A stretch of DNA of 64,000 nt from Alphaproteobacteria bacterium (GCA_017308135.1 JAFKFM010000010.1:46296-110295), one strand, 5' to 3'. Counted from the first letter of the stretch, positions 1 through 18,940 are shown. Notes: generated by a model not told the origin, from the sequence alone. A program made the numbers and translations.

Positions 1-1265
1 TCGAACTCCGCGCGGCGCGCAAAGGGCACGCAAGCGTCGATGCCCATGCGGCCCCAATGGTCCTTGTGCGGATCGCGATAGAAGGTCGGCGTTTCCGGCA
101 CGATGATCGTGTCGCGATCGGGACGCGCACGGGTCAAGATCGCCCAGAAAACGTCGTTGAAATCGTAAAGATCGACGTCTTCGTCGACGACCGTGACGTA
201 TTTCGCCCAGGTCGGCTCCGCCCCCAGCACCGCCTGCAGCACTTGGCGCGCGTGGCCTTCGTATTGCTGACGGATCTGCACCACCGCATGGAAGGCGAAG
301 GGCAGGCAGATGACGTCGATGATGCCGGGCAGGATCGCGTTGATGCGCTGGAAGATGTTCGCCGCGATGGTGATTTCCAGCGTCAGCACTTCCTCGGGCG
401 AGCCGCACAGGATGCTGTGGAACACCGCGTTCGGCCGGGCGGTCACGCCCAGCACTTCGAACACCGCGTTGTTGTCGACCGGCACGTAATAACCCATGAA
501 CTCGCCGAACGGGCCTTCGGGGCGGCGTTCGTTGGGCAGGAAGCGGCCTTCGATCACGATCTCGGTACTCGCGGGAACTTTCAGATCGATATGCTTGCAG
601 GGGCGCATCTCGATCGGCTTGCCGCGCAATTGGGCGGCAACCTCGACCTCGTCGGCGTCGTAAGGCAGCGGCGTGGCCGCCGTCAGGAACAATTGGGGCG
701 GCGGGCCGATCAACATCGCCGCTTCCAGCGGCTTGCCCATCTTCTCCGCCTTCTCGTGATACATCGTCAAATGATGGCGCGGGGCGAGGCGTACGCGCAG
801 TTCCTCGTCGCTCACATACATCGAGCGATGGAAGGACAGGTTGCGCACCTTGGTTTCCGGCTCCTCGGCCAGGAAGATCGCCGAGGTGAAATAGGGGCCC
901 GCGTCGCGCTCGGAATAGGTGATGAGCGGCAGATCGCTGACCTTCACGTCCTCCAAATCCTTGGGCAGCGGCACCTGGCGGATCGGCGGCTCCTTCAGCT
1001 TGGTGCCGAGCGTGGTGAGTTGATGCCATTTGCGGCAGAAATCCGTCGGCTTGATGCCCAGGATCTGCGCCAGCCGCGTACGATTGCTGTAGATCGACGT
1101 CAAAACCGGAAAGCGCGAGCCCGTGACCTTTTCAAACAGCAGCGGCTTGTCGTGCTTCTTCTGCACGAGGTCCGTGATTGCGGCGAGCTGGTGCTTGGCC
1201 TGCACCTCGCGCTCCACCTTCAGAAGCTGGCCTTGGGATTGGAGGGATTTCATAAACTCGCGCAT
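1..1265 (-). CDS. UbiD-family (prenylated-FMN-dependent) decarboxylase, N-terminal ~420 aa; C-terminus lies beyond window edge
   Basis: Manual translation of the minus strand from ATG at 1265 gives an uninterrupted frame to position 1, starting MREFMKSLQSQGQLLKVEREV... This is UbiD/3-octaprenyl-4-hydroxybenzoate-carboxy-lyase-family sequence. It is absent from the ORF track because it runs off the edge. The + strand ORF 57..1283 is its antisense shadow. Confidence 0.75.
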   Translation of the reverse strand, partial: MREFMKSLQSQGQLLKVEREVQAKHQLAAITDLVQKKHDKPLLFEKVTGSRFPVLTSIYSNRTRLAQILGIKPTDFCRKWHQLTTLGTKLKEPPIRQVPLPKDLEDVKVSDLPLITYSERDAGPYFTSAIFLAEEPETKVRNLSFHRSMYVSDEELRVRLAPRHHLTMYHEKAEKMGKPLEAAMLIGPPPQLFLTAATPLPYDADEVEVAAQLRGKPIEMRPCKHIDLKVPASTEIVIEGRFLPNERRPEGPFGEFMGYYVPVDNNAVFEVLGVTARPNAVFHSILCGSPEEVLTLEITIAANIFQRINAILPGIIDVICLPFAFHAVVQIRQQYEGHARQVLQAVLGAEPTWAKYVTVVDEDVDLYDFNDVFWAILTRARPDRDTIIVPETPTFYRDPHKDHWGRMGIDACVPFARRAEF

Positions 1266-1286
1266 CGCGACTTTCCTTTTTGAGCC

Positions 1287-2090
1287 TTATCTCGTGAACG
1301 CCGACAGGCCGACCATCCGCTCCACGGCGAAGATCAGCAGGATCGAAAACAGGATGGTGATGGTCGAAACCGCGGCGATCAGCGGTTCGAATTGCCATTG
1401 CAGATAAAAGAAGATTTCGACCGGCAGCGGCGCGAATTCCGGCGTCGAAAGGAAGATCGACAGCGGATAATTGTTCCAGGACACGATGAAGCTGAGCAGC
1501 GCGCCGCCCGCCACGCCCATGCGCACTTGGGGGAAGGTGATCTTGAAGAAGGCGCGCACCGGGTGCTCGCCCAGCATGATCGCCGCTTCCTCCAGCGACG
1601 GATCGGTGTTCTGAAGATTGGCCATGATGGTGCGCAATGGGAAGGGCAGCGTGATGATGATGTGCCCGATGGTCAGCGCCAGGAACGAGCGGCCAATACC
1701 AACCGTGATCGCCGCCTGATAGATCGCAAGGCCGATGACGACCGTGGGGATCAGCAGCGGCGACATCAAAAACTGCGTGACGACACCTTTGCCGCGGAAG
1801 GGGTAGCGCACGATCGCCATGGCGGCGCACAGCGCCACGCCGGCCGACACGGCGGCCGCGACGATGCCGATCTGGATGCTGAGAAAGAACGCGCGGACGA
1901 AATTGTCGGCGGCGAAAGCGCGCTTGTACCAATCCAGCGTGAAGCCTTCCGGCGGGAAGACGATATGCCGGGGATTGAACGACGACGCGACGATCACGAC
2001 GATCGGTGCGATCATCACCGCGATCCAGAACAGGCCGAAGATGGCGAGTGCGATGCGGGCGGGGCTGCGGAAGCCGGAATCGGCGTACAT
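1287..2090 (-). CDS. ABC transporter permease (spermidine/putrescine PotC/PotI-like)
   Basis: 267-aa ORF, multi-TM, binding-protein-dependent transport inner-membrane signature region, immediately downstream of a second permease and an ATPase. Confidence 0.85.
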   Translation of the reverse strand: MYADSGFRSPARIALAIFGLFWIAVMIAPIVVIVASSFNPRHIVFPPEGFTLDWYKRAFAADNFVRAFFLSIQIGIVAAAVSAGVALCAAMAIVRYPFRGKGVVTQFLMSPLLIPTVVIGLAIYQAAITVGIGRSFLALTIGHIIITLPFPLRTIMANLQNTDPSLEEAAIMLGEHPVRAFFKITFPQVRMGVAGGALLSFIVSWNNYPLSIFLSTPEFAPLPVEIFFYLQWQFEPLIAAVSTITILFSILLIFAVERMVGLSAFTR

Positions 2091-2092
2091 GG

Positions 2093-2986
2093 TTAGCGTC
2101 CTCCGGCGGCGCGGTTGAGCGCCAGCGTCACGACGGCGAGGGAGATCAGCGTCGCGCCGAGCAGGATGAAGCTCATCGCCGACGCGAAGGCGACGTTGCC
2201 GGAGACGTTGGCGGTCCGATAGATCAACATGCCCAGCATGGGCACTTTGCCGCCGCCCAGAAGCTGCGGAATGGCGAAGGATGCGATCGAAATGCAGAAG
2301 ATCAGCACGAAACCGCTGAGCACGCCCGGCAGGGTCGCCGGAAAGATCACACGGCGGAAGACGTAGGGGCCGCTCGCGCCCAGGGAATAGGCGGCTTCGA
2401 CTTGGCGTTGGTCGATCTGCTCGATCACACCGATCATCGCGATGACGAAGAAGGGAATGGCGAGATAGGTGAGACCGATGACGACCCCCGTCTCGTTATA
2501 GAGAAGTTGCAAGGCGGGCAGGCCGATATACTGCGCCAATCCCACGACCGGTCCGTTGTCGAACAGCAGCAACATGATGCCGAAAACGCGGATGACGGTG
2601 TTGAGCCAGAGCGGGCAGACGATCGCCGCGATGAGCGCCGCCTTGAACTTCTGATTGCGCGTCTGCGCCACGAAAAAGGCGAGCGGATACCCGATCAACA
2701 CGGCGAGAAGGCAGGACAGCAGCGATACGCGTACCGTCGTCCACAGGATGCGCTCGAGATAGAAGACGTCGCCCAGGAAACGCGTGTAATTCTCCGCGCT
2801 CATGGGGCCGAGGAAGACCGGCTGCTGTCCGGGGGGCGTGACGCTGAACTGGGCGAGCCACGCGAGCGGAAAGCCGAACAGTCCGATCAGGATAAGCGCG
2901 GACGGCAGAAGCAGCAGCCAATGCGGCCTGATCGCCGGCAAAAAGCGCCGGGGCGGTGCGGCGATAATCGGGGTGGGGGCGGTCAT
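2093..2986 (-). CDS. ABC transporter permease (PotB/PotH-like)
   Basis: Real start taken at MTAPTPIIAAPP (cat at 2984-2986), which gives a 297-aa hydrophobic permease. The upstream Arg-rich 270 aa of track ORF 2093..3793 is read-through overlapping the ATPase gene. The start overlaps the ATPase stop by 4 nt. Confidence 0.85.
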   Translation of the reverse strand: MTAPTPIIAAPPRRFLPAIRPHWLLLLPSALILIGLFGFPLAWLAQFSVTPPGQQPVFLGPMSAENYTRFLGDVFYLERILWTTVRVSLLSCLLAVLIGYPLAFFVAQTRNQKFKAALIAAIVCPLWLNTVIRVFGIMLLLFDNGPVVGLAQYIGLPALQLLYNETGVVIGLTYLAIPFFVIAMIGVIEQIDQRQVEAAYSLGASGPYVFRRVIFPATLPGVLSGFVLIFCISIASFAIPQLLGGGKVPMLGMLIYRTANVSGNVAFASAMSFILLGATLISLAVVTLALNRAAGGR

Positions 2987-4056
2987 TGCACCGCCTTGGG
3001 GACAAGGCAGCCGCCATCGAAGCGGACATGAACGAACTCGCCGCCACCCAGCGGGGTGCGGCTGTCGAAGAATACGTCGCCGCCATTGTCGAGCATCAGT
3101 TGGTAGCGATAGACATTGCCCAGGAACAGAAACTCCACGATACGCGCCCGCATCGCGCCGGCTTCGCCGGACGAAGCGAGGACCACTTCTTCCGGCCGGA
3201 CGGCCAGAAGGGCGCGGTCGCCGCGCGCGAAAGCCTCGATGCGGCGCAGCTTCGGCACGCTGACTTCCATGCCGTCTGTCGTGCGCAGCCACGCGGTTCC
3301 GTCGGCGCCCGCACCGTCGAGCCCCACGTCCAGGAACGTCGCCTTGCCGATGAAGCGTGCGACGAACTCGGTGCGCGGCTCGAAGTAAATTTCGTGCGGC
3401 GAGCCGTGTTGCTCGATCTGGCCGAGATTCATGACGACGACCTGATCGGACAGCGATAGCGCCTCGTCCTGGTCGTGGGTGACGTAGATGGTCGTTTGGG
3501 CGATGCTGCGCTGAAGATGCTTCAACTCCAAGCGCATGTCTTCGCGCAGCTGACGATCCAGATTGCTGAGCGGTTCGTCGAGCAACAATAGCGGGGGATT
3601 GATGACCAGCGCGCGGGCGAGCGCCACGCGCTGCTGCTGGCCGCCGGACAATTCGCGTGGTGTACGCTGGGCAAGGCCGCCGAGATGCAAACGTTCGATG
3701 GCGGAGGTGACGCGTGTGGCGATCTCCGCTTCCGGTAGTTTGCGCACGCGCAAGCCGAACGCGACGTTCTCGAACACACTCATATGCGGCCACAGCGCGT
3801 AGCTTTGGAACACCATGCCGATGCCGCGATGGCGCGGCGAGACATTGGTCATGTCCTGGCCGTCGATATGGATCGAGCCGCTATCGGCCTTCAGAAATCC
3901 CAGAACGATACGCAATGTCGTCGTCTTGCCGCAGCCGCTATGCCCGAGAAGCGATACGAACTGGTTGCGCTTGATGTCGAGCGACACGCCTTTCAGGACA
4001 CGGACGGGGCCGTATCGTTTCTCGAGATTGCGGACGGAGACGAAGGAGTCGGACAT
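2983..4056 (-). CDS. ABC transporter ATP-binding protein (PotA/PotG-like, with C-terminal TOBE-like extension)
   Basis: Walker A GHSGCGKTT, signature LSGGQQQRVALARAL, Walker B LLLDEP, H-loop; 357 aa. Confidence 0.9.
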   Translation of the reverse strand: MSDSFVSVRNLEKRYGPVRVLKGVSLDIKRNQFVSLLGHSGCGKTTTLRIVLGFLKADSGSIHIDGQDMTNVSPRHRGIGMVFQSYALWPHMSVFENVAFGLRVRKLPEAEIATRVTSAIERLHLGGLAQRTPRELSGGQQQRVALARALVINPPLLLLDEPLSNLDRQLREDMRLELKHLQRSIAQTTIYVTHDQDEALSLSDQVVVMNLGQIEQHGSPHEIYFEPRTEFVARFIGKATFLDVGLDGAGADGTAWLRTTDGMEVSVPKLRRIEAFARGDRALLAVRPEEVVLASSGEAGAMRARIVEFLFLGNVYRYQLMLDNGGDVFFDSRTPLGGGEFVHVRFDGGCLVPKAVQ

Positions 4057-4149
4057 CGGGATGATCCAGTGACTGCAAAAGCGTATCGGGGAAGGCTCAC
4101 GGCCGGCGCATCATGGGGAACGCGCCGGCCGCGATCGCGAGGTGGCGCT

Positions 4150-5169
4150 TCAGCGGAAGGCGACTTCCTTGTTCCAGCGCTCTTCCCAGGCGCGGTTATT
4201 GGCGTCGATATATTCCCAATCGACGTTGATCAGGCTTTCGATCGCATCCTTGCCGTGCGGCACGCGCGCGGCAATTTCGGGCTCGAGCACGGCTTTCGAA
4301 TTGGCCGTGCCGTAGTTCATGATCTTGGCGAGGTTTGCCGCGATCTCGGGGCTCAGCAGGAAGTTGACGAGCTTCATCGACAATTCCGTGTTGGGACGCC
4401 CGGCGACGACTTGCAGCGTGCCGATCAACGCGAACCCGCCCGGCTTCGGATTGACGAACTTGACCGGCAGGTTCTGGTCGGTCGCGAGCCAGTTGGCGCG
4501 GCCATTGGTGCAGGTCGAGGCCCAGACCTGGCCGGTGCGGAACAGCGTCGAGAGATCGCCCCAATTCTCGTAGTATTTGGCGACGCTGGGTGCCAGCTCG
4601 GCCATCTTCTTGAACCCGGCATCGGGCTTGCGTTCGTCGCCGCCGTTCAACTTGGCCATCGTCACCAGCAGGCTGATCGAATCGACGCGATAGCTGCGGA
4701 TGCTGACGCGGCCTTTGAGATCATTGCGCCACAGATCGGACCAGTTCTCGATCGGACCCGTGCGGCCGGGCAGGTAGCAAACGCCGAAACTGCCGTAGAA
4801 CAAGCCGACCTGATAGGGATCCATCGCCGCGACGGGGTAAAGATCCGCCATGTTGGGGATCTTCGACTTGTCGAGCGGAACCAGCAGCTTCTCCTTCTGC
4901 ATTTGATAGGAGTAGACCGGGTCGGTGATCAGAACATCGACCTCCTTGTTGCGTGCCATCGTCACCGTCGGCGCGCCGAGCCCCGCGACGATGTTGACGC
5001 GCACGTTGTTCTCGCGTTCGAATTTCGGCAGATGCGGCTCGAACACGGCCTTCATGGGGCCGAGTTCCGTGGCGTTCATGGTGATCGTCGTCTGCGCGGC
5101 GGCGGTACCGGACATCTGGCACGCGAAAGCTGCTGCGAAGGCGACGGAAAGGCTTCCCTGTATGCGCAT
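4150..5169 (-). CDS. ABC substrate-binding protein, family 1 (polyamine/PotD-PotF-like)
   Basis: 339 aa with an N-terminal signal peptide (MRIQGSLSVAFAAAFACQMSGTAAAQ). Sits upstream of the ATPase and permease genes on the same strand. Confidence 0.8.
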   Translation of the reverse strand: MRIQGSLSVAFAAAFACQMSGTAAAQTTITMNATELGPMKAVFEPHLPKFERENNVRVNIVAGLGAPTVTMARNKEVDVLITDPVYSYQMQKEKLLVPLDKSKIPNMADLYPVAAMDPYQVGLFYGSFGVCYLPGRTGPIENWSDLWRNDLKGRVSIRSYRVDSISLLVTMAKLNGGDERKPDAGFKKMAELAPSVAKYYENWGDLSTLFRTGQVWASTCTNGRANWLATDQNLPVKFVNPKPGGFALIGTLQVVAGRPNTELSMKLVNFLLSPEIAANLAKIMNYGTANSKAVLEPEIAARVPHGKDAIESLINVDWEYIDANNRAWEERWNKEVAFR

Positions 5170-5207
5170 TTTCCTTCCTCCTTGCCTGATCGGGTGGTCG
5201 GTTTAAT

Positions 5208-6401
5208 TCACGCGGCGGTATCGGACGGGGCCGTGGCGCGCGCGGCGTTTTCGAACGCCGCGAGAAACTGGTCGTTATCTTCCGCATGGCCGATGCTGAC
5301 GCGTAGCCATGTCGCGAAATTCCCGCCCCACGGTTTGACGATCACCCCGTGGCGAAGCAGCGCTTGGGCCATGGCGGCGGCCGGACGCTTGGCATCGAAG
5401 AACAGGAAATTCGCCCGGCTTGGCGCCGGTTCGTGGCCCATCGCCGTCAGCGCGCGGGCGACGCGATCGCGCTCCGCGAGCGTGGCGGAAACGGATTTGG
5501 CGACCGCCGCTTGATCGGACCACGCGGCACGCGCGGCGATTTGGGCGAGGCGATTGACGTTGAACGCCGTGCGTACGAGATCGAGATGCCGCGCGAAAGC
5601 GGATTCGGACGCGACGCCATAGCCGACGCGCAGCCCCGCAAGTCCATAGGCCTTCGAGAAAGTCCGCAGGGCAAGATAGCGTTTGCCCATCCGGTCGAGC
5701 ATCGGAATGCTCTCGGGGTAGTCGCCGCCGCGCGCGTATTCGTAATAGGCCTCGTCGGCGACGATTACCGTGTCTGGATGGGCGGCGGCGCAGATGGCTT
5801 CGAATTCCGCCGCCGGAATGGCGTTGCCGGTCGGATTGTTCGGATTGCACAAAAACAGGAGCTTCGTGCGCGCCGTCAGGGCGGCGATCGTTGCGGCGGC
5901 GTCGAGCGAAAGATCGGCCTTGCGCGGTACGTCGATGACCGTCGCCCCCATCACGATCGCGTTATCTCGATAGACGGAGAAGGTGGGGGAGGAAAGTACG
6001 ACCTCGTCGCCCGGATTGATGAAGCAGCGGCAGGCGAAGGCGAGAATGTCTTCCGATCCGTTGCCGAAGATCAGGCGATCGGTGGCGACGCCCAGCGAGC
6101 GCGCGATATCTTCACGCAGATCCCGGCAATTCGGATCGGGATAATGTTCGAGCGAAGCCGCTTCCGCCAAAGCGGCGCGCACGCGCGGGCTGGGGCCATA
6201 CGGATTCTCGTTGCTACCGAGCTTGGCGATGCGCGGCGGCGCATAGAGGCGGCGGATTTCCTCCACCCCCAAGCCGGCATTATACGGCACGAGGGTCGTG
6301 ACCGCCTCGCGATACAGCGCGCGCGCTCCTGTTCCGTCGTCGGCATTTTTTGTGATCGAGGTCACGTGCCGCACTGCCCTGCTTATGTATGTCGAGGGCA
6401 A
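5208..6401 (-). CDS. PLP-dependent aminotransferase, class I/II (histidinol-phosphate aminotransferase HisC-like)
   Basis: LVPYNAG...NENP motif region typical of HisC-family proteins. The true start is probably an internal GTG/ATG roughly 10-15 codons downstream of the ORF-track start. Confidence 0.7.
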   Translation of the reverse strand: MPSTYISRAVRHVTSITKNADDGTGARALYREAVTTLVPYNAGLGVEEIRRLYAPPRIAKLGSNENPYGPSPRVRAALAEAASLEHYPDPNCRDLREDIARSLGVATDRLIFGNGSEDILAFACRCFINPGDEVVLSSPTFSVYRDNAIVMGATVIDVPRKADLSLDAAATIAALTARTKLLFLCNPNNPTGNAIPAAEFEAICAAAHPDTVIVADEAYYEYARGGDYPESIPMLDRMGKRYLALRTFSKAYGLAGLRVGYGVASESAFARHLDLVRTAFNVNRLAQIAARAAWSDQAAVAKSVSATLAERDRVARALTAMGHEPAPSRANFLFFDAKRPAAAMAQALLRHGVIVKPWGGNFATWLRVSIGHAEDNDQFLAAFENAARATAPSDTAA

Positions 6402-6438
6402 TTAGGTCAGATATTCCCGCCGTCGTCAATGAGTGTTA

Positions 6439-6450
6439 TATACTAGTATA
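6439..6450. promoter_or_regulatory. Perfect 12-bp palindrome TATACTAGTATA in AT-rich divergent promoter region
   Basis: Self-complementary sequence seen directly in the 60-bp gap between the aminotransferase operon (-) and the FGase-ubiX pair (+). The local AT content is strikingly above background. Confidence 0.4.
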
Positions 6451-6460
6451 GGGTATATGG

Positions 6461-7273
6461 TTGGGATCGATGGAACCGCTCTATAAATTCACGTCCGGCG
6501 ACGCGCCGGTTTTGGTGAGCGTGCCGCATGCGGGCACGCATATTCCCGCAGAAATCGCATCCACGATGACACCGGCGGCGCTGCGAGTCGAGGATACGGA
6601 TTGGTTCGTGGATGCGCTTTACGATGTCGCGCCGGCGCTCGGCATCGGATTGTTGACGGCAACGCATTCGCGCTATGTCGTTGATCTCAATCGCGCGCCC
6701 GACGACGTTTCGCTTTATCCGGGAAAGAGTGTGACGGAGCTCGTGCCGACCACGACATTCGCGCACCAGCCGATCTATGCGCCGGGCCATGTCCCGGATG
6801 CGGACGCGATCGCGCGGCGCGTCGCGCGCTATTGGCGGCCCTATCATACGCTGCTGCGCGACGAACTCGATCGCCTGACGGCGAAATACGGCGCGGTAGT
6901 GTTGTGGGATGGGCATTCGATCCGCAGCGTCGTGCCGCGTTTCTTCGACGGCGTGCTGAGCGATATGAATTTTGGCACCGCCAAAGGCCAAGCGGCAAGC
7001 GCGTCGCTCGTCGCGGCGGTGTCCAGCGCCGCGAACTCGGAAGACGCTTTCGGCGCCGTTTGGGACGATCGTTTTATCGGCGGCTACATCACGCGGACCT
7101 ACGGCAAGCCGGCGGCGCGAGTTCATGCCATTCAACTGGAAATGACATGGCGGACCTATATGGTGGAGCAGGCGCCATATAAACTCGATCCGGGCCGCGC
7201 CGCCAAAGCGCGCGCCTATATCGCCGCCTGTTTGCGTGCCGCCCGCGATTGGGCGCGCGCGCAACGCGCGTAA
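6461..7273 (+). CDS. N-formylglutamate amidohydrolase family protein (HutG-like)
   Basis: SVPHAGTHIP...DLNR...WDGHS motifs characteristic of the FGase family. TTG start at 6461, alternative ATG at 6470. Confidence 0.75.
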   Translation: MGSMEPLYKFTSGDAPVLVSVPHAGTHIPAEIASTMTPAALRVEDTDWFVDALYDVAPALGIGLLTATHSRYVVDLNRAPDDVSLYPGKSVTELVPTTTFAHQPIYAPGHVPDADAIARRVARYWRPYHTLLRDELDRLTAKYGAVVLWDGHSIRSVVPRFFDGVLSDMNFGTAKGQAASASLVAAVSSAANSEDAFGAVWDDRFIGGYITRTYGKPAARVHAIQLEMTWRTYMVEQAPYKLDPGRAAKARAYIAACLRAARDWARAQRA

Positions 7274-7287
7274 TAGGAAAGGGTGCG

Positions 7288-7866
7288 ATGACGCAACGGT
7301 TGATCGTCGGCATTTCTGGCGCATCGGGCGCGATCTACGGCATTCGCTTGCTGCAGGTGGCGCGCGCCGCAGGATTGGAAACGCACCTCGTCGTCACCAA
7401 AACGGCGGCGCAGACGATCGCCTGCGAAACCGACCACTCCTTGAAGGACGTCTGCGAAATGGCGGATGTCGTGCATTCGGCGGCCGATCTTGGTGCGGCG
7501 ATCTCCTCGGGATCGTTCCGCACGCTCGGCATGATCGTGGCGCCGTGTTCGATGCGTTCGCTGTCCGAAATCGCCTACGGCAACACCGGCGGTCTGTTGA
7601 CGCGCGCGGCCGACGTGCAACTCAAGGAGCGCCGCCGCGTGGTTTTGCTGGCGCGCGAGGCGCCGCTGCATCTGGGGCATTTGCGCGCGATGACGCAGGC
7701 GACGGAGATCGGCGCCGTTGTCTTGCCGCCCGTGCCGGCCTTCTACAATCGGCCGCAGACTCTCGACGATATCGTCGATCACACGGTCGGCCGTGCGCTC
7801 GATCTTTTCGGCGTCGAGAGCGGGATCGTGAAGCGTTGGAAAGACTCGGGATCGTCGTGCTCGTAG
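7288..7866 (+). CDS. ubiX: UbiX-family flavin prenyltransferase (prenylated-FMN synthase)
   Basis: MTQRLIVGISGASGAIYG N-terminus and overall UbiX/Pad1 similarity. The track ORF begins 13 codons earlier at a non-ATG start. Confidence 0.85.
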   Translation: MTQRLIVGISGASGAIYGIRLLQVARAAGLETHLVVTKTAAQTIACETDHSLKDVCEMADVVHSAADLGAAISSGSFRTLGMIVAPCSMRSLSEIAYGNTGGLLTRAADVQLKERRRVVLLAREAPLHLGHLRAMTQATEIGAVVLPPVPAFYNRPQTLDDIVDHTVGRALDLFGVESGIVKRWKDSGSSCS

Positions 7867-7912
7867 GATGGCTTCGTGGGCGATTCCACATCCGGACGTT
7901 TGAATTGAGAAG

Positions 7913-7932
7913 CTGACGCTCCGCTGCGTCAG
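7913..7932 (+). terminator. Hairpin CTGACGC-tccgct-GCGTCAG downstream of ubiX
   Basis: 7-bp perfect stem seen in sequence, followed by TTTCC. Immediately precedes repeat copy 1. Confidence 0.35.
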
Positions 7933-8117
7933 TTTCCACAAAAGGCCTCAAAATGCTTCGATATTGTGGAAAACAATATTGAAACAATTGAATTCTATAC
8001 GGTCTGGGGGACTGGGCTCGCGGCGATGCCGCTCGGGATTCGAATCCCGCCGCTCCGACCACTCGCAAGAGACGAAGAAGCCCGCCCTGGGAAATCAGCG
8101 GCGGGCTTCGGCGTTTT
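7933..8117 (+). repeat. Dispersed element copy 1 (variant): conserved 5' box + AT-rich spacer + tRNA-like 3' module (7999..8061, ends ACCA) + terminator hairpin (8077..8118)
   Basis: Shares TTTTCCACAAAAGGCCTCAAAATGC, ACGGTCTGGGGGACTGGG, TTCGAATCCCGCCGCTCCGACCA and GAAGCCCGCC..GGCGGGCTTCGGCGTTTTT with the three other copies. Differs by a ~22-nt replacement (CTCGCGGCGATGCCGCTCGGGA) inside the tRNA-like module. Confidence 0.8.
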
Positions 8118-8432: not shown

Positions 8433-9113
8433 ATGAACGATTCAACGTCCCCCACGGCAGACGTAAGATCTGCCGGTCGTTACATTCTCATTGGTATTCT
8501 CACCGTTGCGCCACTGACGGTTACCTGGATTATTCTCGATTTTCTTTTTGCGCAGTTATCGAGGGTCGGGAAGCCTTGGGTCGCGACGATTGCGCGCGGA
8601 ATCGCTCCGGAAAGTCCAGGCACAGCCCAGTTATTGCAGAATGAGACGTTCCAATCGTTTGTTGCCGTTGGCGTTGTTTTATTGGGATTGTGGCTGCTCG
8701 GCTGGGTGGCGAGCCGCGTCATCGGGCGGCGCTTAATCGGAATTTTCGAACGCCTGATTGGGCTCATTCCCTTTGTAGATAAGGTATATCACGCGACCCA
8801 ACGCTTCTTGACCATCGCCGGTGGTACGCAAGACGGCGCGCGCCGTGTGGTGTTAATCGAATTTCCGTCGCGCGATATGAAAGTAGTCGGGTTTGTGACG
8901 AAGACGCTTGTCGATGCGAATTCGGGTACCCAATTGGCAGCTGTTTATGTGCCGACGGCGCCGAATCCGACTTCGGGTTATGTCGAGATTGTGCCAATCG
9001 AGAATCTGGTATTCATCGACTGGACATTCGACGAGGCGATGGCCTTCATCGTGACTGGTGGCTCCAGTGCGCCGGATCGGATCGCATACAGCCACCCACC
9101 GCCACGCGGCTAA
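8433..9113 (+). CDS. DUF502-family membrane protein
   Basis: 226 aa, two N-terminal TM helices, and the VPTAPNPTSGYVEIVP motif typical of DUF502. Confidence 0.75.
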   Translation: MNDSTSPTADVRSAGRYILIGILTVAPLTVTWIILDFLFAQLSRVGKPWVATIARGIAPESPGTAQLLQNETFQSFVAVGVVLLGLWLLGWVASRVIGRRLIGIFERLIGLIPFVDKVYHATQRFLTIAGGTQDGARRVVLIEFPSRDMKVVGFVTKTLVDANSGTQLAAVYVPTAPNPTSGYVEIVPIENLVFIDWTFDEAMAFIVTGGSSAPDRIAYSHPPPRG

Positions 9114-9342: not shown

Positions 9343-10971
9343 ATGCCGCCGACCGACACGATCGCGTCCGCGCTGGGCGGAATTGGGCTGTTTCTGCTCG
9401 GCATGTCGATGATGACCGAGGGACTCAAGGCGGCCGCAGGCGGTGCGCTACGCGACTGGCTGGCGCGAGCCACGCGGACGGTGCCGCATAGTTTGGCGGC
9501 CGGCTTCCTGATTACGGCTTTGGTTCAATCGTCCAGCGCGGTGACGGTCGCCGCGATCGGGCTCGTCAACGCCGGACTGCTCGGCTTGACACAGGCGGTA
9601 TGGCTGGTGTTCGGCACCAACGTGGGCACGACGATGACCGGCTGGATCGTCGCGTCGATCGGAGTAAAGGTCGATGTCGCGGCGCTTGCTTTGCCAATGA
9701 TCGGTTTGGGCATGGCCTTGCGCATTGCGGCGGGCGGCCGGGAAAGGATCACCGGCGGCGGCGGCGCGATCACGGGATTCGGGCTGTTCTTCCTTGGCAT
9801 ATCCTTTCTTCAGAACGGCTTCGCGCACGCCGCCGACACGCTGGTGCTGGGCTTGCCGGCGGAGGGCGGAATCACCAAAACGGCGATGCTCGTCGCCGTC
9901 GGCACCGCCCTGACTGTGCTGATGCAATCGTCCAGTGCCGCGCTCGCGGTGACGCTCGCCGCCAGCGCTGGCGGCGGTCTCGGTATCGAAGCGCTCGCGG
10001 CGGTCGTCGTGGGCACAAATATCGGCACGACGTCGACCGCATTCTTCGCGGGTCTTGGCGCGACATCGGCTGCTCGGCGCGTGGCGGCGGCGCATATCAT
10101 CTTCAATGTTGCGACGGCGGCGGTCTCGCTAACGATCCTGCCGCAACTCGTCGCGGTCTCGGCATTTCTCGTCGATGTCGTAACTTCGGCGAACGCGCCG
10201 GCAGCGACGCTGGCCGTGTTTCATACCGTCTTCAACGTTCTCGGCGTTGTCTTGATGCTGCCCGTAGGCGGCCTGCTCGTCCGCTGGCTCGCGCGGATGT
10301 TCGCGAGCGGCGATGAGGCCGTTGCACGGCCTAAATTCTTGGACGCCGGCCTCGAGGCCGTGCCGGCGCTCGCGGCGGGCGGTTTGATCCGCGAAAGCGA
10401 ACGGCATTTGGCCGCTGCGGCTGCAGCCGTTCTTGCCACCGGCGATGCGCATCGACGCGAAAGCGAAGGCGGCAAGTTGAAGGGGCCCGCGGCGGTTCGA
10501 AGCCTTGGCGTCGCAATCCGGACGTTTCTGATTCGCCTCGGCAAGTCGCCGCTTCCCGCCGATATGGCCCGCGCGCTGCCGCATGTTTTACGCGCCAGTC
10601 AGCACACCGACGCGCTCGCCGGGATCGCGTTGCCAGCGATGCCGCCGTCGATCGCCGCCGGTTCTCCGCTCGCCGGCGGCGTCGAGCTTATCGAGAAGGC
10701 GACGCGCGGCTGCCTCGCTTTGACCGTCGAGAGCGGCGGCGATACGGCGCGGATACGGGCCGCGACCGGCGAGGTGGAGGGCGCTTACGAAGCGTTGAAA
10801 ACGACGCTTCTGTCGGCGACGGCCGCCGGCGTTATGGATGTCCAAGAATTCGACCAGATGCTTGATCGCGCGCGGTCGTACCGGGAGGCGGCGCGGTTGG
10901 CGTGGAAGGCGCACAACCGGCTGGCCGCCGCTCGCGCGGCGATGGGCGTAGCCGGGGACAGGCGCGTGTAA
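9343..10971 (+). CDS. Na/Pi-cotransporter family protein (NptA/YjbB-like) with C-terminal PhoU-like region
   Basis: Duplicated QSSSA motifs (LVQSSSAVTVA, LMQSSSAALAV), polytopic, 542 aa. Confidence 0.85.
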   Translation: MPPTDTIASALGGIGLFLLGMSMMTEGLKAAAGGALRDWLARATRTVPHSLAAGFLITALVQSSSAVTVAAIGLVNAGLLGLTQAVWLVFGTNVGTTMTGWIVASIGVKVDVAALALPMIGLGMALRIAAGGRERITGGGGAITGFGLFFLGISFLQNGFAHAADTLVLGLPAEGGITKTAMLVAVGTALTVLMQSSSAALAVTLAASAGGGLGIEALAAVVVGTNIGTTSTAFFAGLGATSAARRVAAAHIIFNVATAAVSLTILPQLVAVSAFLVDVVTSANAPAATLAVFHTVFNVLGVVLMLPVGGLLVRWLARMFASGDEAVARPKFLDAGLEAVPALAAGGLIRESERHLAAAAAAVLATGDAHRRESEGGKLKGPAAVRSLGVAIRTFLIRLGKSPLPADMARALPHVLRASQHTDALAGIALPAMPPSIAAGSPLAGGVELIEKATRGCLALTVESGGDTARIRAATGEVEGAYEALKTTLLSATAAGVMDVQEFDQMLDRARSYREAARLAWKAHNRLAAARAAMGVAGDRRV

Positions 10972-11008
10972 TTCCGTGCGCTTCCGGCGCCCATCGCCCG
11001 GCGACCGT

Positions 11009-11869
11009 TCAAGCGCGCACGACGATCGTATCCTGCGCGAGAAGCGCGGTCAGCGTTTCCGCGACGCTTCCGAACACGAGGCTATCGATACCGATCCGCC
11101 CATGCGTTCCAAGAACGACGAGATCCGGCGACATGCGTGGAAGCTCTTCAAGCAGAATCCCGGCTGCTCGACCTTGCGCGACACGGATGGAACGGAGCCC
11201 GTGCCCATAGGCCGCGGCCCGTCCGGTATCGGCAACGCATTCGGCGGTTAATTGCTCGAGCCGACGCCGGAGCGCCGCCTCATCGGCAGCATCTCCGCCT
11301 TCGTCGATATGGACGACTTCGATCGCCGCGTCGGGAAATGCCTTCAGCGCGAAGGTCAGCGCCTTGCGCGACGACCCTTCCAAATCGACGGCGGCCACGA
11401 TCTTCGCGTAAGGGCGCCGCGCGCGCGCCTTGACGACGAGAATCGGGCAATTCGCTCTCCGGATAATGTTATCGATGACGGTACCGCGAATCATACCCAT
11501 CAAAGTCATGTCGCGCGGGCTGCCGACGACGACAATCTCGGCGCCCATCGTGCCTGCGGCACGGACGACTGTGTCGTCGATCGCGCCCTGAAGAACTTCG
11601 CCCGTCACGACGATCCGTCCGGCCGGAGTATTTTCTATGATTTCGGTGGTCAGCCGCGTCATGGCCTCCCAGAGCCGGCCGATCGCGACCCCATCGGCGG
11701 GCGCCGAGGGTTCGGCAACATGTACGAAATGGACGGCGGCGCCTTGCGCGGCAAGCATTAGCGCTCGATCCGCAGCCCGATCCATGCAAACGCCGAGATC
11801 GACGGCGACGAGAATACGCTGGAGCCTGTACGGCTCTGCGCCGCGCTCGCCGATTTCCGTGTTCTTCAT
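11009..11869 (-). CDS. Universal stress protein, tandem UspA domains
   Basis: Two Usp-like halves, each with the VVLGTHGR / VVVGSPRD ATP-binding-type motif; 286 aa. Confidence 0.8.
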   Translation of the reverse strand: MKNTEIGERGAEPYRLQRILVAVDLGVCMDRAADRALMLAAQGAAVHFVHVAEPSAPADGVAIGRLWEAMTRLTTEIIENTPAGRIVVTGEVLQGAIDDTVVRAAGTMGAEIVVVGSPRDMTLMGMIRGTVIDNIIRRANCPILVVKARARRPYAKIVAAVDLEGSSRKALTFALKAFPDAAIEVVHIDEGGDAADEAALRRRLEQLTAECVADTGRAAAYGHGLRSIRVAQGRAAGILLEELPRMSPDLVVLGTHGRIGIDSLVFGSVAETLTALLAQDTIVVRA

Positions 11870-12738
11870 TCTTCAGTCTCCCGTTCCGGCGGCGGCAATA
11901 CGAGGACGTCGATCGACGCCGAAGCGAGTACCCGTTCCGCGACGCTTCCCAGTACGGCCCGCGCCAATGTCGTGCGGCTTTGCGTGGATACGACAAGGAG
12001 ATCGGCTCGACGCGCGACGGCTTCCTCTAGAATTTCCACGGCGGGCGCCGCCGCTTCGTGGCGGACGAGGCACTCGGCGCTGGCGGCGCCGATCTCAGTC
12101 GCGAAAACAACTAGATCGCGCCGTGCGTCGGCGCGCAGCCCATCAAGATAGTCTTCGCGGTCGCGTTCCGCGACGAACGACGACATCGCCAGCCGCAAGG
12201 CCGGTGCATCGAACACGTTCAGTATGGATCGCCGGCCACTGAAATAGTAATCCAGCCGGACGAGCCGTTTGAGTGCTTTGCGCGAGCCCTCGGAGAGATC
12301 GGTCGTCAGCATGACATGGCCGTAATCCCCGAAGGGCGGGCCGTTCGCCATCAGGACCGGGCACGTGGCCGCGCGTATCGTGCGTTCGGCCGTCGTGCCG
12401 GTGAACGCATCGCGTAGAATTTGACGCCGATGCGGACCGATGACGAGCATGTCGGGGGCCGGATCGTCCACCGACTTCAAAATCCCCGCGAACGGATCGG
12501 CGAGTTCGATGCGAATCGTCGAGGCGACGCCATCGACGCTTTTCAACGACCCGGCGAGTTCCGTCAGCAGCAGCCACGCCTCGTGCTTCTCTTGCTCGAC
12601 AATGCGGCGGGGACGATCGTCGTCGATCACGTGGACTAGATCGATCACGGCGCCGCTACGCCGCGAGAGAAGTACGGCGCGCCGCAACGCTCGATCGGAG
12701 CGTTCCGAGAAATCCGTCGCTAGTGCCAGTCGCTTCAT
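11866..12738 (-). CDS. Universal stress protein, tandem UspA domains
   Basis: 290 aa tandem Usp. Its stop overlaps the start of the downstream usp by 4 nt. Confidence 0.8.
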   Translation of the reverse strand: MKRLALATDFSERSDRALRRAVLLSRRSGAVIDLVHVIDDDRPRRIVEQEKHEAWLLLTELAGSLKSVDGVASTIRIELADPFAGILKSVDDPAPDMLVIGPHRRQILRDAFTGTTAERTIRAATCPVLMANGPPFGDYGHVMLTTDLSEGSRKALKRLVRLDYYFSGRRSILNVFDAPALRLAMSSFVAERDREDYLDGLRADARRDLVVFATEIGAASAECLVRHEAAAPAVEILEEAVARRADLLVVSTQSRTTLARAVLGSVAERVLASASIDVLVLPPPERETEE

Positions 12739-13063: not shown

Positions 13064-14773
13064 ATGATAAATTTCGCAGAAGTTGCATTGTTGCTGGCGG
13101 TGGCGGCTGCGGTCGGTTTGGCCGGCAGCATTTTGCGCCAGCCGTTGATCGTCGGATTCATCGCAGCCGGGCTGCTTGCCGGACCGTCGGCATTGAATAT
13201 CGTCGCCGCAACGGGCTATATCGAGTTGATGTCCGAGCTTGGCATCGCCGTCCTGTTGTTTTTGGTGGGCATCAAGCTCGATGTGGCGCTGATCCGCTCT
13301 TTAGGTTACGTCGCCGTCGTCACGGGGCTCGGCCAAGTCGCTTTCACGTCTTTCTTCGGCTATCTCATCGGTCTTGGCCTCGGCCTTGATCATGTGACGA
13401 GCTTGTATGTCGCGGTCGCGCTGACATTCTCGTCAACGATCATCGTCGTCAAACTCCTCTCCGACAAGCGCGAGATCGATTCCCTTCACGGGCAAATCGC
13501 GCTGGGCTTCTTGATTGTTCAGGATCTGTGCGTAGTAGCGGCGATGGTCGCGTTGTCAGCGATCGGGATCGGCGCCAACGCCGAAGATGTTGCGGAGCCG
13601 GGATCTTGGTTCGCCATCTTGGCGGCGGGGACGGGCCTCGCCGCCGCTGTCTTCCTGTTCGTAAAGTTCTTCGCGACGCCGCTGACAATGTGGCTGGCGC
13701 GTTCGCCCGAGTTGTTGACGATCAGCGCAATAGCTATCGCGGCGATTTTTGCGGCGGCGGGCGAAGCGGCAATGCTCGGCAAGGAAATCGGGGGGCTGTT
13801 GGCGGGAATCGCTTTGGCCTCGACGCCGTACCGCGAAACAATCTCCGCGCGGTTGGCGCCGCTGCGCGACTTCCTTCTGTTGTTCTTTTTCGTCGCGTTG
13901 GGCGCGAAGCTCGATTTGTCGACACTTGGCGCGCACGCAACCGCCGCAGCGGTGTTTTCGGCTTTCGTACTGGTCGGCAATCCACTGATCGTCCTCGCGA
14001 TACTCGGGGCTATGGGTTACGCGAAGCGGACGGGCTTTTTGGCCGGTCTGACGGTCGCGCAGATCAGCGAATTTTCGCTGATATTCACGGCGATGGGAGT
14101 ATCGCTCGGGCATGTGGGCCCGGACGCTCTGGGGCTGGTTACGATGGTGGGGCTCGTTACGATCGCGGCATCGACCTATATGATCGTTCACTCCCATCGA
14201 CTCTACGCGCTGTTCGAACCTGCGCTCGGCGTGTTCGAGCGCGGCGGCGCGCATCGCGAAGAGTCGTTCGCTGGGCGCCGCATGTCGGGCGAATTCACGG
14301 TAGTCGTTTTCGGGCTCGGACGCTTCGGTACGGCAATCGGGACACGGCTTCGGCAACGCGGAATTCGCGTGCTCGGGATCGACTTCAATCCGCAAGCAGT
14401 AAAGCGTTGGCGCGAGCTCGGGTTGGACGCCGAATTCGGCGATGCCTCGGACCCCGAATTCGTCTCCGAGATTCCGTTCGGCCGGGCCCAATGGATCTTG
14501 TCCACCGTGCCGATCCACCCGGCTGGCCTCAGCCATGAAGACGCGCGGCGCACATTGATTCAGTTGACGCGGTCGGCGGGGTATCGCGGTCGGATCGCGG
14601 CGGCGTCGCATGGAGACTACGATCGCCGCCTGTTGCAGGAAGCGGGGGTCGATCTGGTGCTGGAGCCTTTCCAAGACGCCGCCGATCGCGCGGTCGAGTT
14701 GCTGTGCGGCGCAGAACCCGTCGAACGTATCGATGTTTCGCCGATCGCCGCCGAAGGCGGCAAGGCCGGGTAA
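13064..14773 (+). CDS. Cation:proton antiporter, CPA2 family (KefB/KefC-like) with C-terminal RCK/TrkA-N domain
   Basis: N-terminal Na_H exchanger-type TM core, then the VVVFGLGRFGTAIGTRL Rossmann (RCK) motif. Start taken at MINFAEVALL. Confidence 0.85.
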   Translation: MINFAEVALLLAVAAAVGLAGSILRQPLIVGFIAAGLLAGPSALNIVAATGYIELMSELGIAVLLFLVGIKLDVALIRSLGYVAVVTGLGQVAFTSFFGYLIGLGLGLDHVTSLYVAVALTFSSTIIVVKLLSDKREIDSLHGQIALGFLIVQDLCVVAAMVALSAIGIGANAEDVAEPGSWFAILAAGTGLAAAVFLFVKFFATPLTMWLARSPELLTISAIAIAAIFAAAGEAAMLGKEIGGLLAGIALASTPYRETISARLAPLRDFLLLFFFVALGAKLDLSTLGAHATAAAVFSAFVLVGNPLIVLAILGAMGYAKRTGFLAGLTVAQISEFSLIFTAMGVSLGHVGPDALGLVTMVGLVTIAASTYMIVHSHRLYALFEPALGVFERGGAHREESFAGRRMSGEFTVVVFGLGRFGTAIGTRLRQRGIRVLGIDFNPQAVKRWRELGLDAEFGDASDPEFVSEIPFGRAQWILSTVPIHPAGLSHEDARRTLIQLTRSAGYRGRIAAASHGDYDRRLLQEAGVDLVLEPFQDAADRAVELLCGAEPVERIDVSPIAAEGGKAG

Positions 14774-14807
14774 CGATGAAGAATTCCCAGAGTGGAGGCG
14801 CGCTGAT

Positions 14808-18607: not shown

Positions 18608-18925
18608 TCAAGGAACCACCAAAGACAGCAATGGGGCGTATTGTTGCGCGCCGAAGATATCGCCGTCCCCTGGAGACCCCGACGGTCTTTCCCGCAACAT
18701 TGTGAACTTAATCGCGAATGCCGGATCGAACGCGACGAAGTCGGTGATCCGGGCTTCGTCGATCCCAAACAGTGCCGCGACGCTTGGCCGGGTCAGCACG
18801 TTCGATTGGAGGACGCGCCGATAGTTATCGCGATCGGTGAAAATGATATCGAACGTGATCTTGTCCGTCCCCGCGTTCTTGGAGCGGATCGTCTTGGCGA
18901 GGCTGGAAAGGGTCGTGGACGACAT
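18608..18925 (-). CDS. DUF4387-family small protein (usual partner of AtuA/DUF1446)
   Basis: 105 aa, IRSKNAGTDKITFDIIF...GAQQYAPLLSLVVP pattern, directly downstream of the DUF1446 gene. Confidence 0.6.
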   Translation of the reverse strand: MSSTTLSSLAKTIRSKNAGTDKITFDIIFTDRDNYRRVLQSNVLTRPSVAALFGIDEARITDFVAFDPAFAIKFTMLRERPSGSPGDGDIFGAQQYAPLLSLVVP

Positions 18926-18940
18926 TGTTGATCTCCGCTT

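Follow-up and report, generated by a model that had tools for sequence, protein, structure and literature searches.

The first 7,866 nucleotides of a 64,000-nucleotide stretch of alphaproteobacterial DNA (GCA_017308135.1 JAFKFM010000010.1:46296-110295; hereafter the window, by which the whole stretch is meant) encode a decarboxylase of the UbiD family, truncated by the edge of the sequence, and UbiX, the flavin prenyltransferase that would provide it with prenylated flavin mononucleotide (prFMN). Comparison with a nearly identical genomic region and with 80 orthologous loci indicates that this gene pair is embedded in an extended histidine utilization (hut) cluster and that similar associations of ubiD with hut genes recur in unrelated bacteria. 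We tentatively interpret the locus as a hut cluster equipped with an accessory UbiD/UbiX pair that would act on an imidazole-bearing acid. Histidine utilization is regarded as a complete textbook pathway, and there is demand for UbiD/UbiX pairs as reversible (de)carboxylases in biocatalysis and CO2 fixation. Both UbiD/UbiX systems and hut operons are already known as kinds; what is new here is the location of the former within the latter.

An extended hut cluster beyond the window edge

Open reading frames (ORFs) of the window were taken from a six-frame list with translations and assigned to families using Pfam and NCBIfam, which agreed for all assignments; all the genes listed in an initial annotation, made from the window sequence alone, proved to be present with the identities proposed there. 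An exact-protein look-up of the PotC-like permease encoded next to ubiD retrieved the contig GCA_006365015.1 VFQR01000021.1 (L001), which is 98.97 % identical to positions 1-8016 of the window. The loci related to the window come from Tagaea sp. genomes, and the source of the window is a Tagaea-like alphaproteobacterium of the order Rhodospirillales. The window contains 421 of the 441 codons of the ubiD gene (1..1265, minus strand), and the missing carboxy-terminal 20 residues, the recovery of which had been proposed in the initial annotation, were obtained from L001 (ubiD at 10826-12151; ...FERKRLVGADEINLEQWLSQA), yielding a full-length protein of 441 amino acids.

In L001, ubiD is followed by genes for an M20 deacylase of the ArgE/DapE type (a family-level match only), urocanase HutU (13369-15027; TIGR01228, 796 bits), a small SAF protein and a GD_AH protein that together form a split UxaA/GarD-like lyase (15032-16542), the regulator HutC and the ammonia-lyase HutH (281 and 654 bits for cut-offs of 220 and 539, respectively), a 429-amino-acid protein without a match in Pfam, NCBIfam or the PDB (18918-20207), and, in the hutI position, an amidohydrolase that is 56-57 % identical to the confirmed HutI of Tagaea relatives; the fetched DNA of L001 stops within this last gene. 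On the opposite strand of the window, the FGase-family gene (6461 or 6470..7273, plus strand) passes the equivalog model for HutG, N-formylglutamate deformylase (TIGR02017, 298.5 bits against a cut-off of 278.75), and hutH, hutU and hutI share the locus with it in L001 and in the Tagaea relatives. Because HutG passes its equivalog model and the hut genes continue past the window edge, the locus is best described as an extended hut cluster, with the FGase gene as a bona fide hutG and the window covering the right-hand end of the cluster. Most of the cluster is the classical histidine utilization pathway. The initial annotation had correctly assigned the hydrolase to the FGase family but considered it part of a gene combination that matches no described pathway. 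The gene is an ordinary hutG within a hut locus that was hidden by the window edge, and therefore the proposed formyl/formimino-amide hydrolase needs no new explanation.

The hutG stop codon is separated from the start of ubiX (7288..7866, plus strand; NF004685, 259 bits against a cut-off of 188) by 14 nucleotides, and the two genes form one operon; the TTG codon at 7249 that opens the longest ubiX ORF is probably too early a start. UbiX is the partner of UbiD and would supply its prFMN. The divergent, minus-strand operon is similarly compact, with gaps of 38, 93, -4, 2 and 21 nucleotides from the gene for a HisC-like aminotransferase, through four importer genes, to ubiD.

The models for HutG, HutU, HutH, HutI and HutC thus recognize genes of the locus, as they would in the classical hut operons of Pseudomonas and Klebsiella (hutH, hutU, hutI, hutF/hutG, hutC), and a palindromic candidate operator of the 4-N2-4 layout is present at the promoter here as well. 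The locus differs from these operons in the presence of ubiD, ubiX and the genes for the HisC-like aminotransferase, the M20 deacylase, the split UxaA-like lyase, an importer of the PotD fold class and the 429-amino-acid protein, and in that the Tagaea urocanase belongs to a divergent clade linked to M20 genes. A comparative study of 113 HutC regulons reported only hut enzymes, HutD and transporters.

The decarboxylase and its active site

The UbiD protein matches the Pfam families UbiD_N, UbiD and UbiD_C in the typical three-domain architecture (PF20695, PF01977, PF20696), and the only UbiD model that it passes is that of the general family (TIGR00148, 324-325 bits against a cut-off of 244.85). 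Scores with the models of specific functions are far lower than required: 192-193 bits against 788 for 4-hydroxy-3-polyprenylbenzoate decarboxylase (NF008175), 273-278 against 650 for VdcC (NF041204) and 245 against 496 for the menaquinone decarboxylase. We therefore agree with the initial annotation that this is not the canonical UbiD of the ubiquinone pathway. A housekeeping ubiquinone UbiD/UbiX pair has family membership alone in its favor, and it is contradicted by the NF008175 score, by the length of the protein (441 amino acids compared to approximately 497) and by the location of its gene in a catabolic operon behind an ABC importer; we assign this explanation a negligible probability and reject it on account of the NF008175 score. 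An assignment as VdcC, the C subunit of phenolic acid decarboxylase, was likewise discarded because NF041204 scores below its cut-off and no VdcD-like small subunit was found among the gene calls of the neighborhood in L001.

A search for relatives among 5.8 billion proteins returned thousands of matches, the best 120 of which are 68-99 % identical to the UbiD protein and come from Alpha-, Beta- and Gammaproteobacteria, Rokubacteria and Methylomirabilota; none of these 120 carries a name more specific than 'UbiD family decarboxylase'. The orthologous group, here denoted UbiD-H, shows 63-72 % identity across Proteobacteria, Rokubacteria and Methylomirabilota, and we found no characterized member of it. 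One member encoded on a metagenome contig (P0065; L093 10001-11929) consists of 642 amino acids, about 200 residues more than usual, and adjoins genes of the creatinase/M24 fold; either a gene fusion or an error in gene calling could account for this length.

The best match in the PDB is HmfF (6h6v/6h6x; E = 4e-71, residues 1-438 aligned), followed by E. coli UbiD and the indole-3-carboxylate decarboxylase AnInD, so that the placement of the protein among enzymes of heteroaromatic acids, suggested in the initial annotation by analogy, is borne out by its closest solved relative. Like the HmfF/HmfG system, the enzyme is a short UbiD of about 440-450 amino acids with the same catalytic Arg/Glu/Glu residues and a UbiX-type prFMN synthase as partner; its identity to HmfF is roughly 40 %, as estimated from the alignment. 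Residue conservation was assessed in an alignment of the 80 orthologues with HmfF. Of the catalytic residues, all of which are present (R147, E250 and E255), two do not vary among the 80 sequences (R147 and E255), and the motif PEGPFGEF, which contains the E-x4-E loop (EGPFGE), can be read in the translation; the enzyme is probably active, as far as these residues tell. The positions of HmfF H296, R304 and R331, which we take to bind the second carboxylate in the P. thermopropionicum enzyme, are occupied in the orthologues by glutamate (E292, 80 of 80), Val/Ile and Val/Ala, respectively, and a further position, E297, is glutamate in 79 of the 80. The distal pocket is thus predicted to be acidic rather than basic, which would fit a cationic or N-H donor distal group.

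These substitutions bear directly on the possibility that the protein is simply an HmfF/HmfG-type orthologue, that is, a 2,5-furandicarboxylate decarboxylase, as its best PDB match over the full length and its size (441 compared to 448 amino acids) might suggest. The presumed basic pocket is replaced throughout the 80 orthologues, no hmf genes were detected in any of the 80 neighborhoods, and the group is named only at the family level. We rejected this assignment on the grounds of the replaced pocket positions and the lack of hmf context; the protein is probably not a furandicarboxylate decarboxylase, and orthology to HmfF appears very improbable.

Gene neighborhoods of the orthologues

The neighborhoods were compared in 80 species-level loci that encode UbiD orthologues of 63-99 % identity, including flanks of 10 kb, with the ORFs clustered and labelled by Pfam, NCBIfam and BLAST. 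At least one hut enzyme gene lies within these 10 kb in 19 of the 80 loci, and by a rough estimate well under 1 % of random genes would have such a neighbor. The Tagaea layout is represented by the window and five fetched loci. In the SAR270 layout, the gene order is SBP-potABC-ubiD-M20-CoA-transferase-hutU...hutH-hutI, where SBP stands for the solute-binding protein gene. The Casimicrobiaceae-type layout consists of hutU, which encodes a canonical urocanase, divergent from ubiX-hutH-hutI-ubiD-SBP-ABC-permease; here, the genes overlap, and the products of hutH and hutI score well above their cut-offs (682 compared to 539 bits and 445 compared to 298 bits, respectively). Other hut-linked loci were found in Castellaniella, in five alphaproteobacterial genera (Paracoccus, Chelativorans, Rubellimicrobium, Salipiger and Microvirga) and in two metagenome-assembled genomes (MAGs; L035 and L040). 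The linkage between UbiD and hut recurs in unrelated bacteria, is operonic and has arisen in several independent arrangements.

Among the other neighbors, ubiX is the most frequent (53 of the 80 loci), followed by a gene for the DUF2390 protein (TIGR02444; 34 loci) and a gene for a HutC-equivalog-type regulator located directly upstream (34 loci, a count that rests on one scored representative with 256 bits against the cut-off of 220). An NMT1-type ABC importer is encoded directly downstream in 31 loci and an importer with an SBP of the Pot type in 14. Further neighbors include an aldehyde dehydrogenase (26 loci), a thiamine pyrophosphate (TPP) enzyme (15), an HcnABC/opine-dehydrogenase-like trio (14-15), DAO and DAO2 proteins (15 each), the HisC-like aminotransferase (9), the M20 deacylase (7) and a CoA-transferase with an acyl-CoA dehydrogenase (6-7). 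The initial annotation had made the co-conservation of the flanking genes a touchstone of its proposal, and the outcome is mixed. The exact set found in the window is shared only by the relatives of Tagaea and, in part, by one other MAG, with the aminotransferase and the Pot-type SBP each confined to the minority of loci given above; in contrast, UbiX, importers, HutC-type regulators and hut enzyme genes recur.

The DUF2390 protein is fused to UbiX in Rhodoligotrophos defluvii (L088 8713-10008), which suggests a role for this domain in prFMN supply or in the decarboxylase system; we found nothing on DUF2390 in the literature searched.

The diversity of these contexts raises the possibility that UbiD, UbiX and the importer constitute an autonomous mobile module for import and decarboxylation of an acrylic or heteroaromatic acid without relation to histidine (for example a pyrrole, pyridine, indole or aminoaryl carboxylate), which landed in or next to hut loci in some lineages. 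Indeed, the commonest context, (IclR)-ubiX(-DUF2390)-ubiD-NMT1 SBP-ABC, is minimal (approximately 31 of the 80 loci), the other neighbors, from the aldehyde dehydrogenase to the CoA-transferase, vary, the UbiD sequences are very similar across all contexts, and the nearest characterized relatives use furan and indole acids. Integration into hut loci is, however, operonic and has several independent origins, as in the overlapping ubiX-hutH-hutI-ubiD genes and the adjacent ubiD-M20-hutU genes, and both hut enzyme genes and HutC-type regulators occur in these neighborhoods far more often than expected by chance. Furthermore, the NMT1-type importer may itself be a histidine importer; we assume that the 'HisXYZ' system belongs to the NMT1 type. 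Such a 'HisXYZ' system has been predicted in HutC regulons. On balance, we consider a module that is independent of histidine metabolism unlikely.

A different explanation starts from the oxidoreductases and aminotransferases in these loci: UbiD might decarboxylate a 2-oxo acid or cyclic ketimine in its enol or enamine form, the compound being formed from histidine, arginine or lysine by the aminotransferase or by a DAO/HcnABC-type dehydrogenase, and release an aldehyde for the aldehyde dehydrogenase of these loci. Neighbors that would form 2-oxo acids do recur (the aminotransferase, DAO and DAO2), aldehyde dehydrogenase and TPP enzyme genes are divergent from hutC'-ubiD-ubiX, and the family III CoA-transferase with the acyl-CoA dehydrogenase in 6-7 loci resembles the glutarate pathway. 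This scheme would nevertheless make UbiD redundant wherever a TPP-dependent 2-oxo-acid decarboxylase occurs, and it leaves unexplained the compact operons in which ubiX-hutH-hutI-ubiD lies divergently to hutU without any such partner. In addition, enol-phenylpyruvate is a mechanism-based inhibitor, not a substrate, of prFMN enzymes, as is known for Fdc1. A 2-oxo-acid substrate thus appears quite improbable.

A second UbiD paralogue, 38-39 % identical to the first, is encoded in L078, L079 and L081 (Bosea, Beijerinckiaceae and Rhizobium). Its neighbors encode a split D-glutamate-cyclase-like pair (DUF4392 and an Asp/Glu-racemase-fold protein), a HisC-like aminotransferase and an ABC importer, and this module precedes ubiX-hutH-hutI-ubiD in Casimicrobiaceae.

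Candidate operators

The perfect palindrome reported in the initial annotation, TATACTAGTATA, is present at positions 6439-6450 (no strand assigned), in the promoter region from which hutG and the aminotransferase gene diverge. It is the sole match in the 64-kb window, even when up to two mismatches are allowed, with approximately 0.04 matches expected by chance. The gap itself is AT-rich as had been described: it spans 59 bp with 40.7 % GC if the longest ORFs are considered and 104 bp with 48 % GC if the starts called in the near-identical genome are used, compared to 62 % GC in the surrounding region. A strict sigma-70 scan of the gap detected no promoter. The TATAC/GTATA arms are retained at the hutG/aminotransferase promoter in the window and the five related loci, with variation in the 2-nt spacer (TA, TG, CG or AG). 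In a more distant Tagaea-like MAG (L068), an insertion with genes for a family III CoA-transferase and an acyl-CoA dehydrogenase separates hutG from the aminotransferase gene, and there are two copies of the palindrome (2468 and 4889), one in front of each operon. The palindrome shares the 4-N2-4 layout with the proven HutC site of Pseudomonas, TGTA-N2-TACA, and HutC, as the sole regulator for which the locus has a gene, probably binds TATAC-N2-GTATA as a candidate operator.

In Rhizobiales and Rhodobacterales, the HutC paralogues encoded next to UbiD are accompanied by a different and strongly conserved site, A(A/G)TGATATCA(C/T)T, which occurs 40 times compared to about 6 occurrences expected. 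At 25 of these, the site is found at a fixed distance of 700-1300 nt upstream of ubiD, often as two copies between the divergent genes for an aldehyde dehydrogenase and a HutC-like regulator (L059 9009 and 9217; L063 9012 and 9218). This site is probably the operator of the HutC paralogue. A single operator common to all hut-linked UbiD loci was considered and discarded, given that Rhizobiales and Rhodobacterales possess TGATATCA-type sites and not TATAC-N2-GTATA.

Predicted reaction and substrate

In the proposed scheme, one palindrome-bearing promoter region would drive hutG-ubiX and, divergently, aminotransferase-SBP-ABC importer-ubiD-M20-hutU-(SAF/GD_AH)-hutC-hutH-x-hutI. HutH, urocanase, HutI and HutG would convert histidine to glutamate, UbiX would make prFMN for UbiD, and UbiD would remove CO2 from an sp2-bound carboxylate. 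The substrate would be urocanate or a carboxylated or otherwise derivatized urocanate or histidine taken up by the adjacent importer, and the accessory enzymes (aminotransferase, M20 deacylase and UxaA-like lyase) would feed further histidine-related compounds into the same route.

Our best guess, then, is that the acid used by UbiD bears an imidazole and is unsaturated or heteroaromatic, urocanate or a derivative of it being examples. We make this guess because urocanate corresponds, with imidazole as its ring, to cinnamate, on which prFMN cycloaddition is classically observed; because an ammonia-lyase next to UbiD/UbiX mirrors the arrangement of phenylalanine or tyrosine ammonia-lyase with Fdc1/Pad1, in which cinnamate or coumarate is converted to styrene or vinylphenol; because the acidic distal pocket would fit an imidazole N-H; and because UbiD-family enzymes, XCDC and HudA, act on imidazole rings. 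Thus, XCDC of Cupriavidus sp. LA-1 decarboxylates xanthine-8-carboxylate, acting on the imidazole ring of a purine, and the pyrrole-2-carboxylate decarboxylase HudA (PA0254) forms a covalent imidazole-prFMN adduct and slowly decarboxylates imidazole-4-carboxylate. Both resemble the system described here in their dependence on prFMN and UbiX and in their N-heteroaromatic acid substrates. There are also differences: HudA is distant (E = 1e-31), with about 500 amino acids, and belongs to the dimeric Fdc branch, XCDC (approximately 55 kDa) has been described as not close to other UbiD members, neither is linked to hut, and Fdc1 represents another branch of the family (E of about 1e-32 to 1e-35).

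A number of observations weigh against an imidazole-bearing substrate. No hut enzyme gene is found within 10 kb in 61 of the 80 loci, 31 loci have only the NMT1-type ABC importer, to which an IclR regulator may be added, and the full Tagaea gene set is confined to close relatives and, partially, the one additional MAG; in the minimal loci with just an importer and UbiD/UbiX, the product would seem to be processed by a pathway whose genes lie elsewhere. The half-site of the Tagaea palindrome is ATAC, compared to TGTA in the Pseudomonas HutC site, and the HutC-like regulators of Rhizobiales, with their different operator, may sense another ligand. On the chemical side, decarboxylation of urocanate would compete with urocanase. 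We know of no catabolic fate for its product, 4-vinylimidazole, nor of any natural ring-carboxylated histidine or urocanate. Finally, the substrate assignment is drawn from sequence comparison.

A stronger form of the hypothesis is that the hut-linked UbiD clade catalyzes a reaction of histidine or imidazole metabolism that has not been described, be it the prFMN-dependent (de)carboxylation of urocanate, that of an imidazole carboxylated on its ring and destined for the hut pathway or, as a more radical candidate, a transformation of urocanate in which prFMN serves as the electrophile, like NAD+ in urocanase. We regard this as possible but rather doubtful. Chemistry of prFMN on imidazoles is thought to be difficult. 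In the literature searched, we found no connection of UbiD/UbiX with urocanate, hut or HutC, nor any urocanate decarboxylase, biological 4-vinylimidazole or family-wide sequence-similarity-network study of UbiD; in line with these searches, and in agreement with the initial annotation to this extent, no described pathway explains the decarboxylase. If such a reaction exists, it would add a branch to a textbook pathway and define a new class of UbiD substrates.

The orthologous group is highly conserved across phyla, environmentally abundant and repeatedly built into hut operons. Should the link to histidine utilization be functional, it would reveal a missing reaction in imidazole metabolism and a new heteroaromatic substrate class for prFMN enzymes. 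It would also make the accessory genes more accessible to study, namely those for the divergent urocanases, the M20 deacylase, the DUF2390 protein and the HutC paralogues that have an operator of their own.

Two urocanase clades

The urocanases encoded in these loci fall into two clades. The canonical ones are 69-84 % identical to each other and score 955-972 bits with the HutU model, compared to 782-796 bits, or about 175 bits less, for a second clade, the genes of which always adjoin an M20 gene (L001 13369-15027, L090 13782-15437, L035 2995-4650 and L040 2656-4800). Members of this M20-linked clade, which includes the Tagaea urocanase, share 61-78 % identity across lineages and 48-56 % with the canonical urocanases, and the MAG L035 carries both clades. 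The M20-linked proteins are about equidistant from two thiourocanate-hydratase models, with scores of 655-721 bits against cut-offs of 880 and 930. Two possibilities for the Tagaea protein are a genuine urocanase that has diverged and an enzyme whose substrate is derived from urocanate.

The combination of an M20 deacylase, a urocanase and a SuyAB-like lyase prompted us to consider an ergothioneine/thiourocanate pathway. This route is not supported because HutH scores as a true histidine ammonia-lyase and the urocanase falls below both thiourocanate-hydratase cut-offs, although it may still apply to the accessory genes. The resemblance of the lyase to SuyAB concerns its layout, a small SAF and a large GD_AH subunit, which we take to be that of sulfolactate sulfo-lyase; the sole PDB match of the GD_AH protein is galactarate dehydratase. 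Searches of the PDB with the M20, GD_AH and 429-amino-acid proteins yielded family-level matches or none. The 429-amino-acid protein, encoded between hutH and hutI, is 76-92 % identical among the Tagaea relatives.

The importer and the aminotransferase

The four importer genes, all on the minus strand, encode a PotC-like permease (1287..2090; BPD_transp_1) and a PotB-like permease (2093..2986; BPD_transp_1), so named for their fold, a PotA/PhnT-like ATPase with a TOBE domain (2983..4056; ABC_tran and TOBE_2), and a periplasmic SBP of the PotD/PhnS fold class (4150..5169; SBP_bac_8/6/11/1). The ATG of the potB-like gene shares the sequence ATGA with the stop codon of the potA-like gene. The initial annotation described a polyamine-type importer, which is correct at the level of the fold, whereas polyamine specificity is contradicted by the scores with the Pot equivalog models, all far below their cut-offs (PotA, 345 against 482 bits; PotB, 137 against 348; PotC, 140 against 326; PotD, 70 against 582), with the ATPase falling below all equivalog cut-offs, and by the replacement of ligand-binding residues. 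In an alignment with E. coli PotD (1POT), six of the seven positions that we take to bind polyamines differ in the SBP (S83 to D, Y85 to V, D168 to Y, W229 to T, W255 to L and D257 to G), E171 to D being the sole conservative change; in 1POT itself, the presumed positions carry residues of the expected types. The predicted ligand is therefore not a polyamine, and the importer resembles PotABCD in fold only. Comparison of the PotD-fold SBP and of the NMT1-type SBP with the PDB produced only distant matches, none with an informative ligand.

The class II aminotransferase (5208..6401 or 6365, minus strand; Aminotran_1_2) passes TIGR01141 (309.5 bits against a cut-off of 276.55), and its best-scoring model is NF003496 (444 bits against a cut-off of 540). 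Despite the similarity to HisC, the gene is located in a catabolic operon and not in a his operon. Its probable start is the GTG at 6365, going by the gene call in the near-identical genome.

The right-hand edge of the conserved block

No tRNA genes or Rfam families were found in the region, and no tRNA gene was found at position 8016, where synteny with L001 ends. This position lies just after ubiX, which therefore marks the edge of the conserved block. Beyond it, the near-identical strain has genes for a mannitol dehydrogenase, a PfkB kinase and a sugar ABC system, and the window continues with unrelated ORFs, including those for membrane proteins of 226 (8433-9113) and 542 amino acids (9343-10971).

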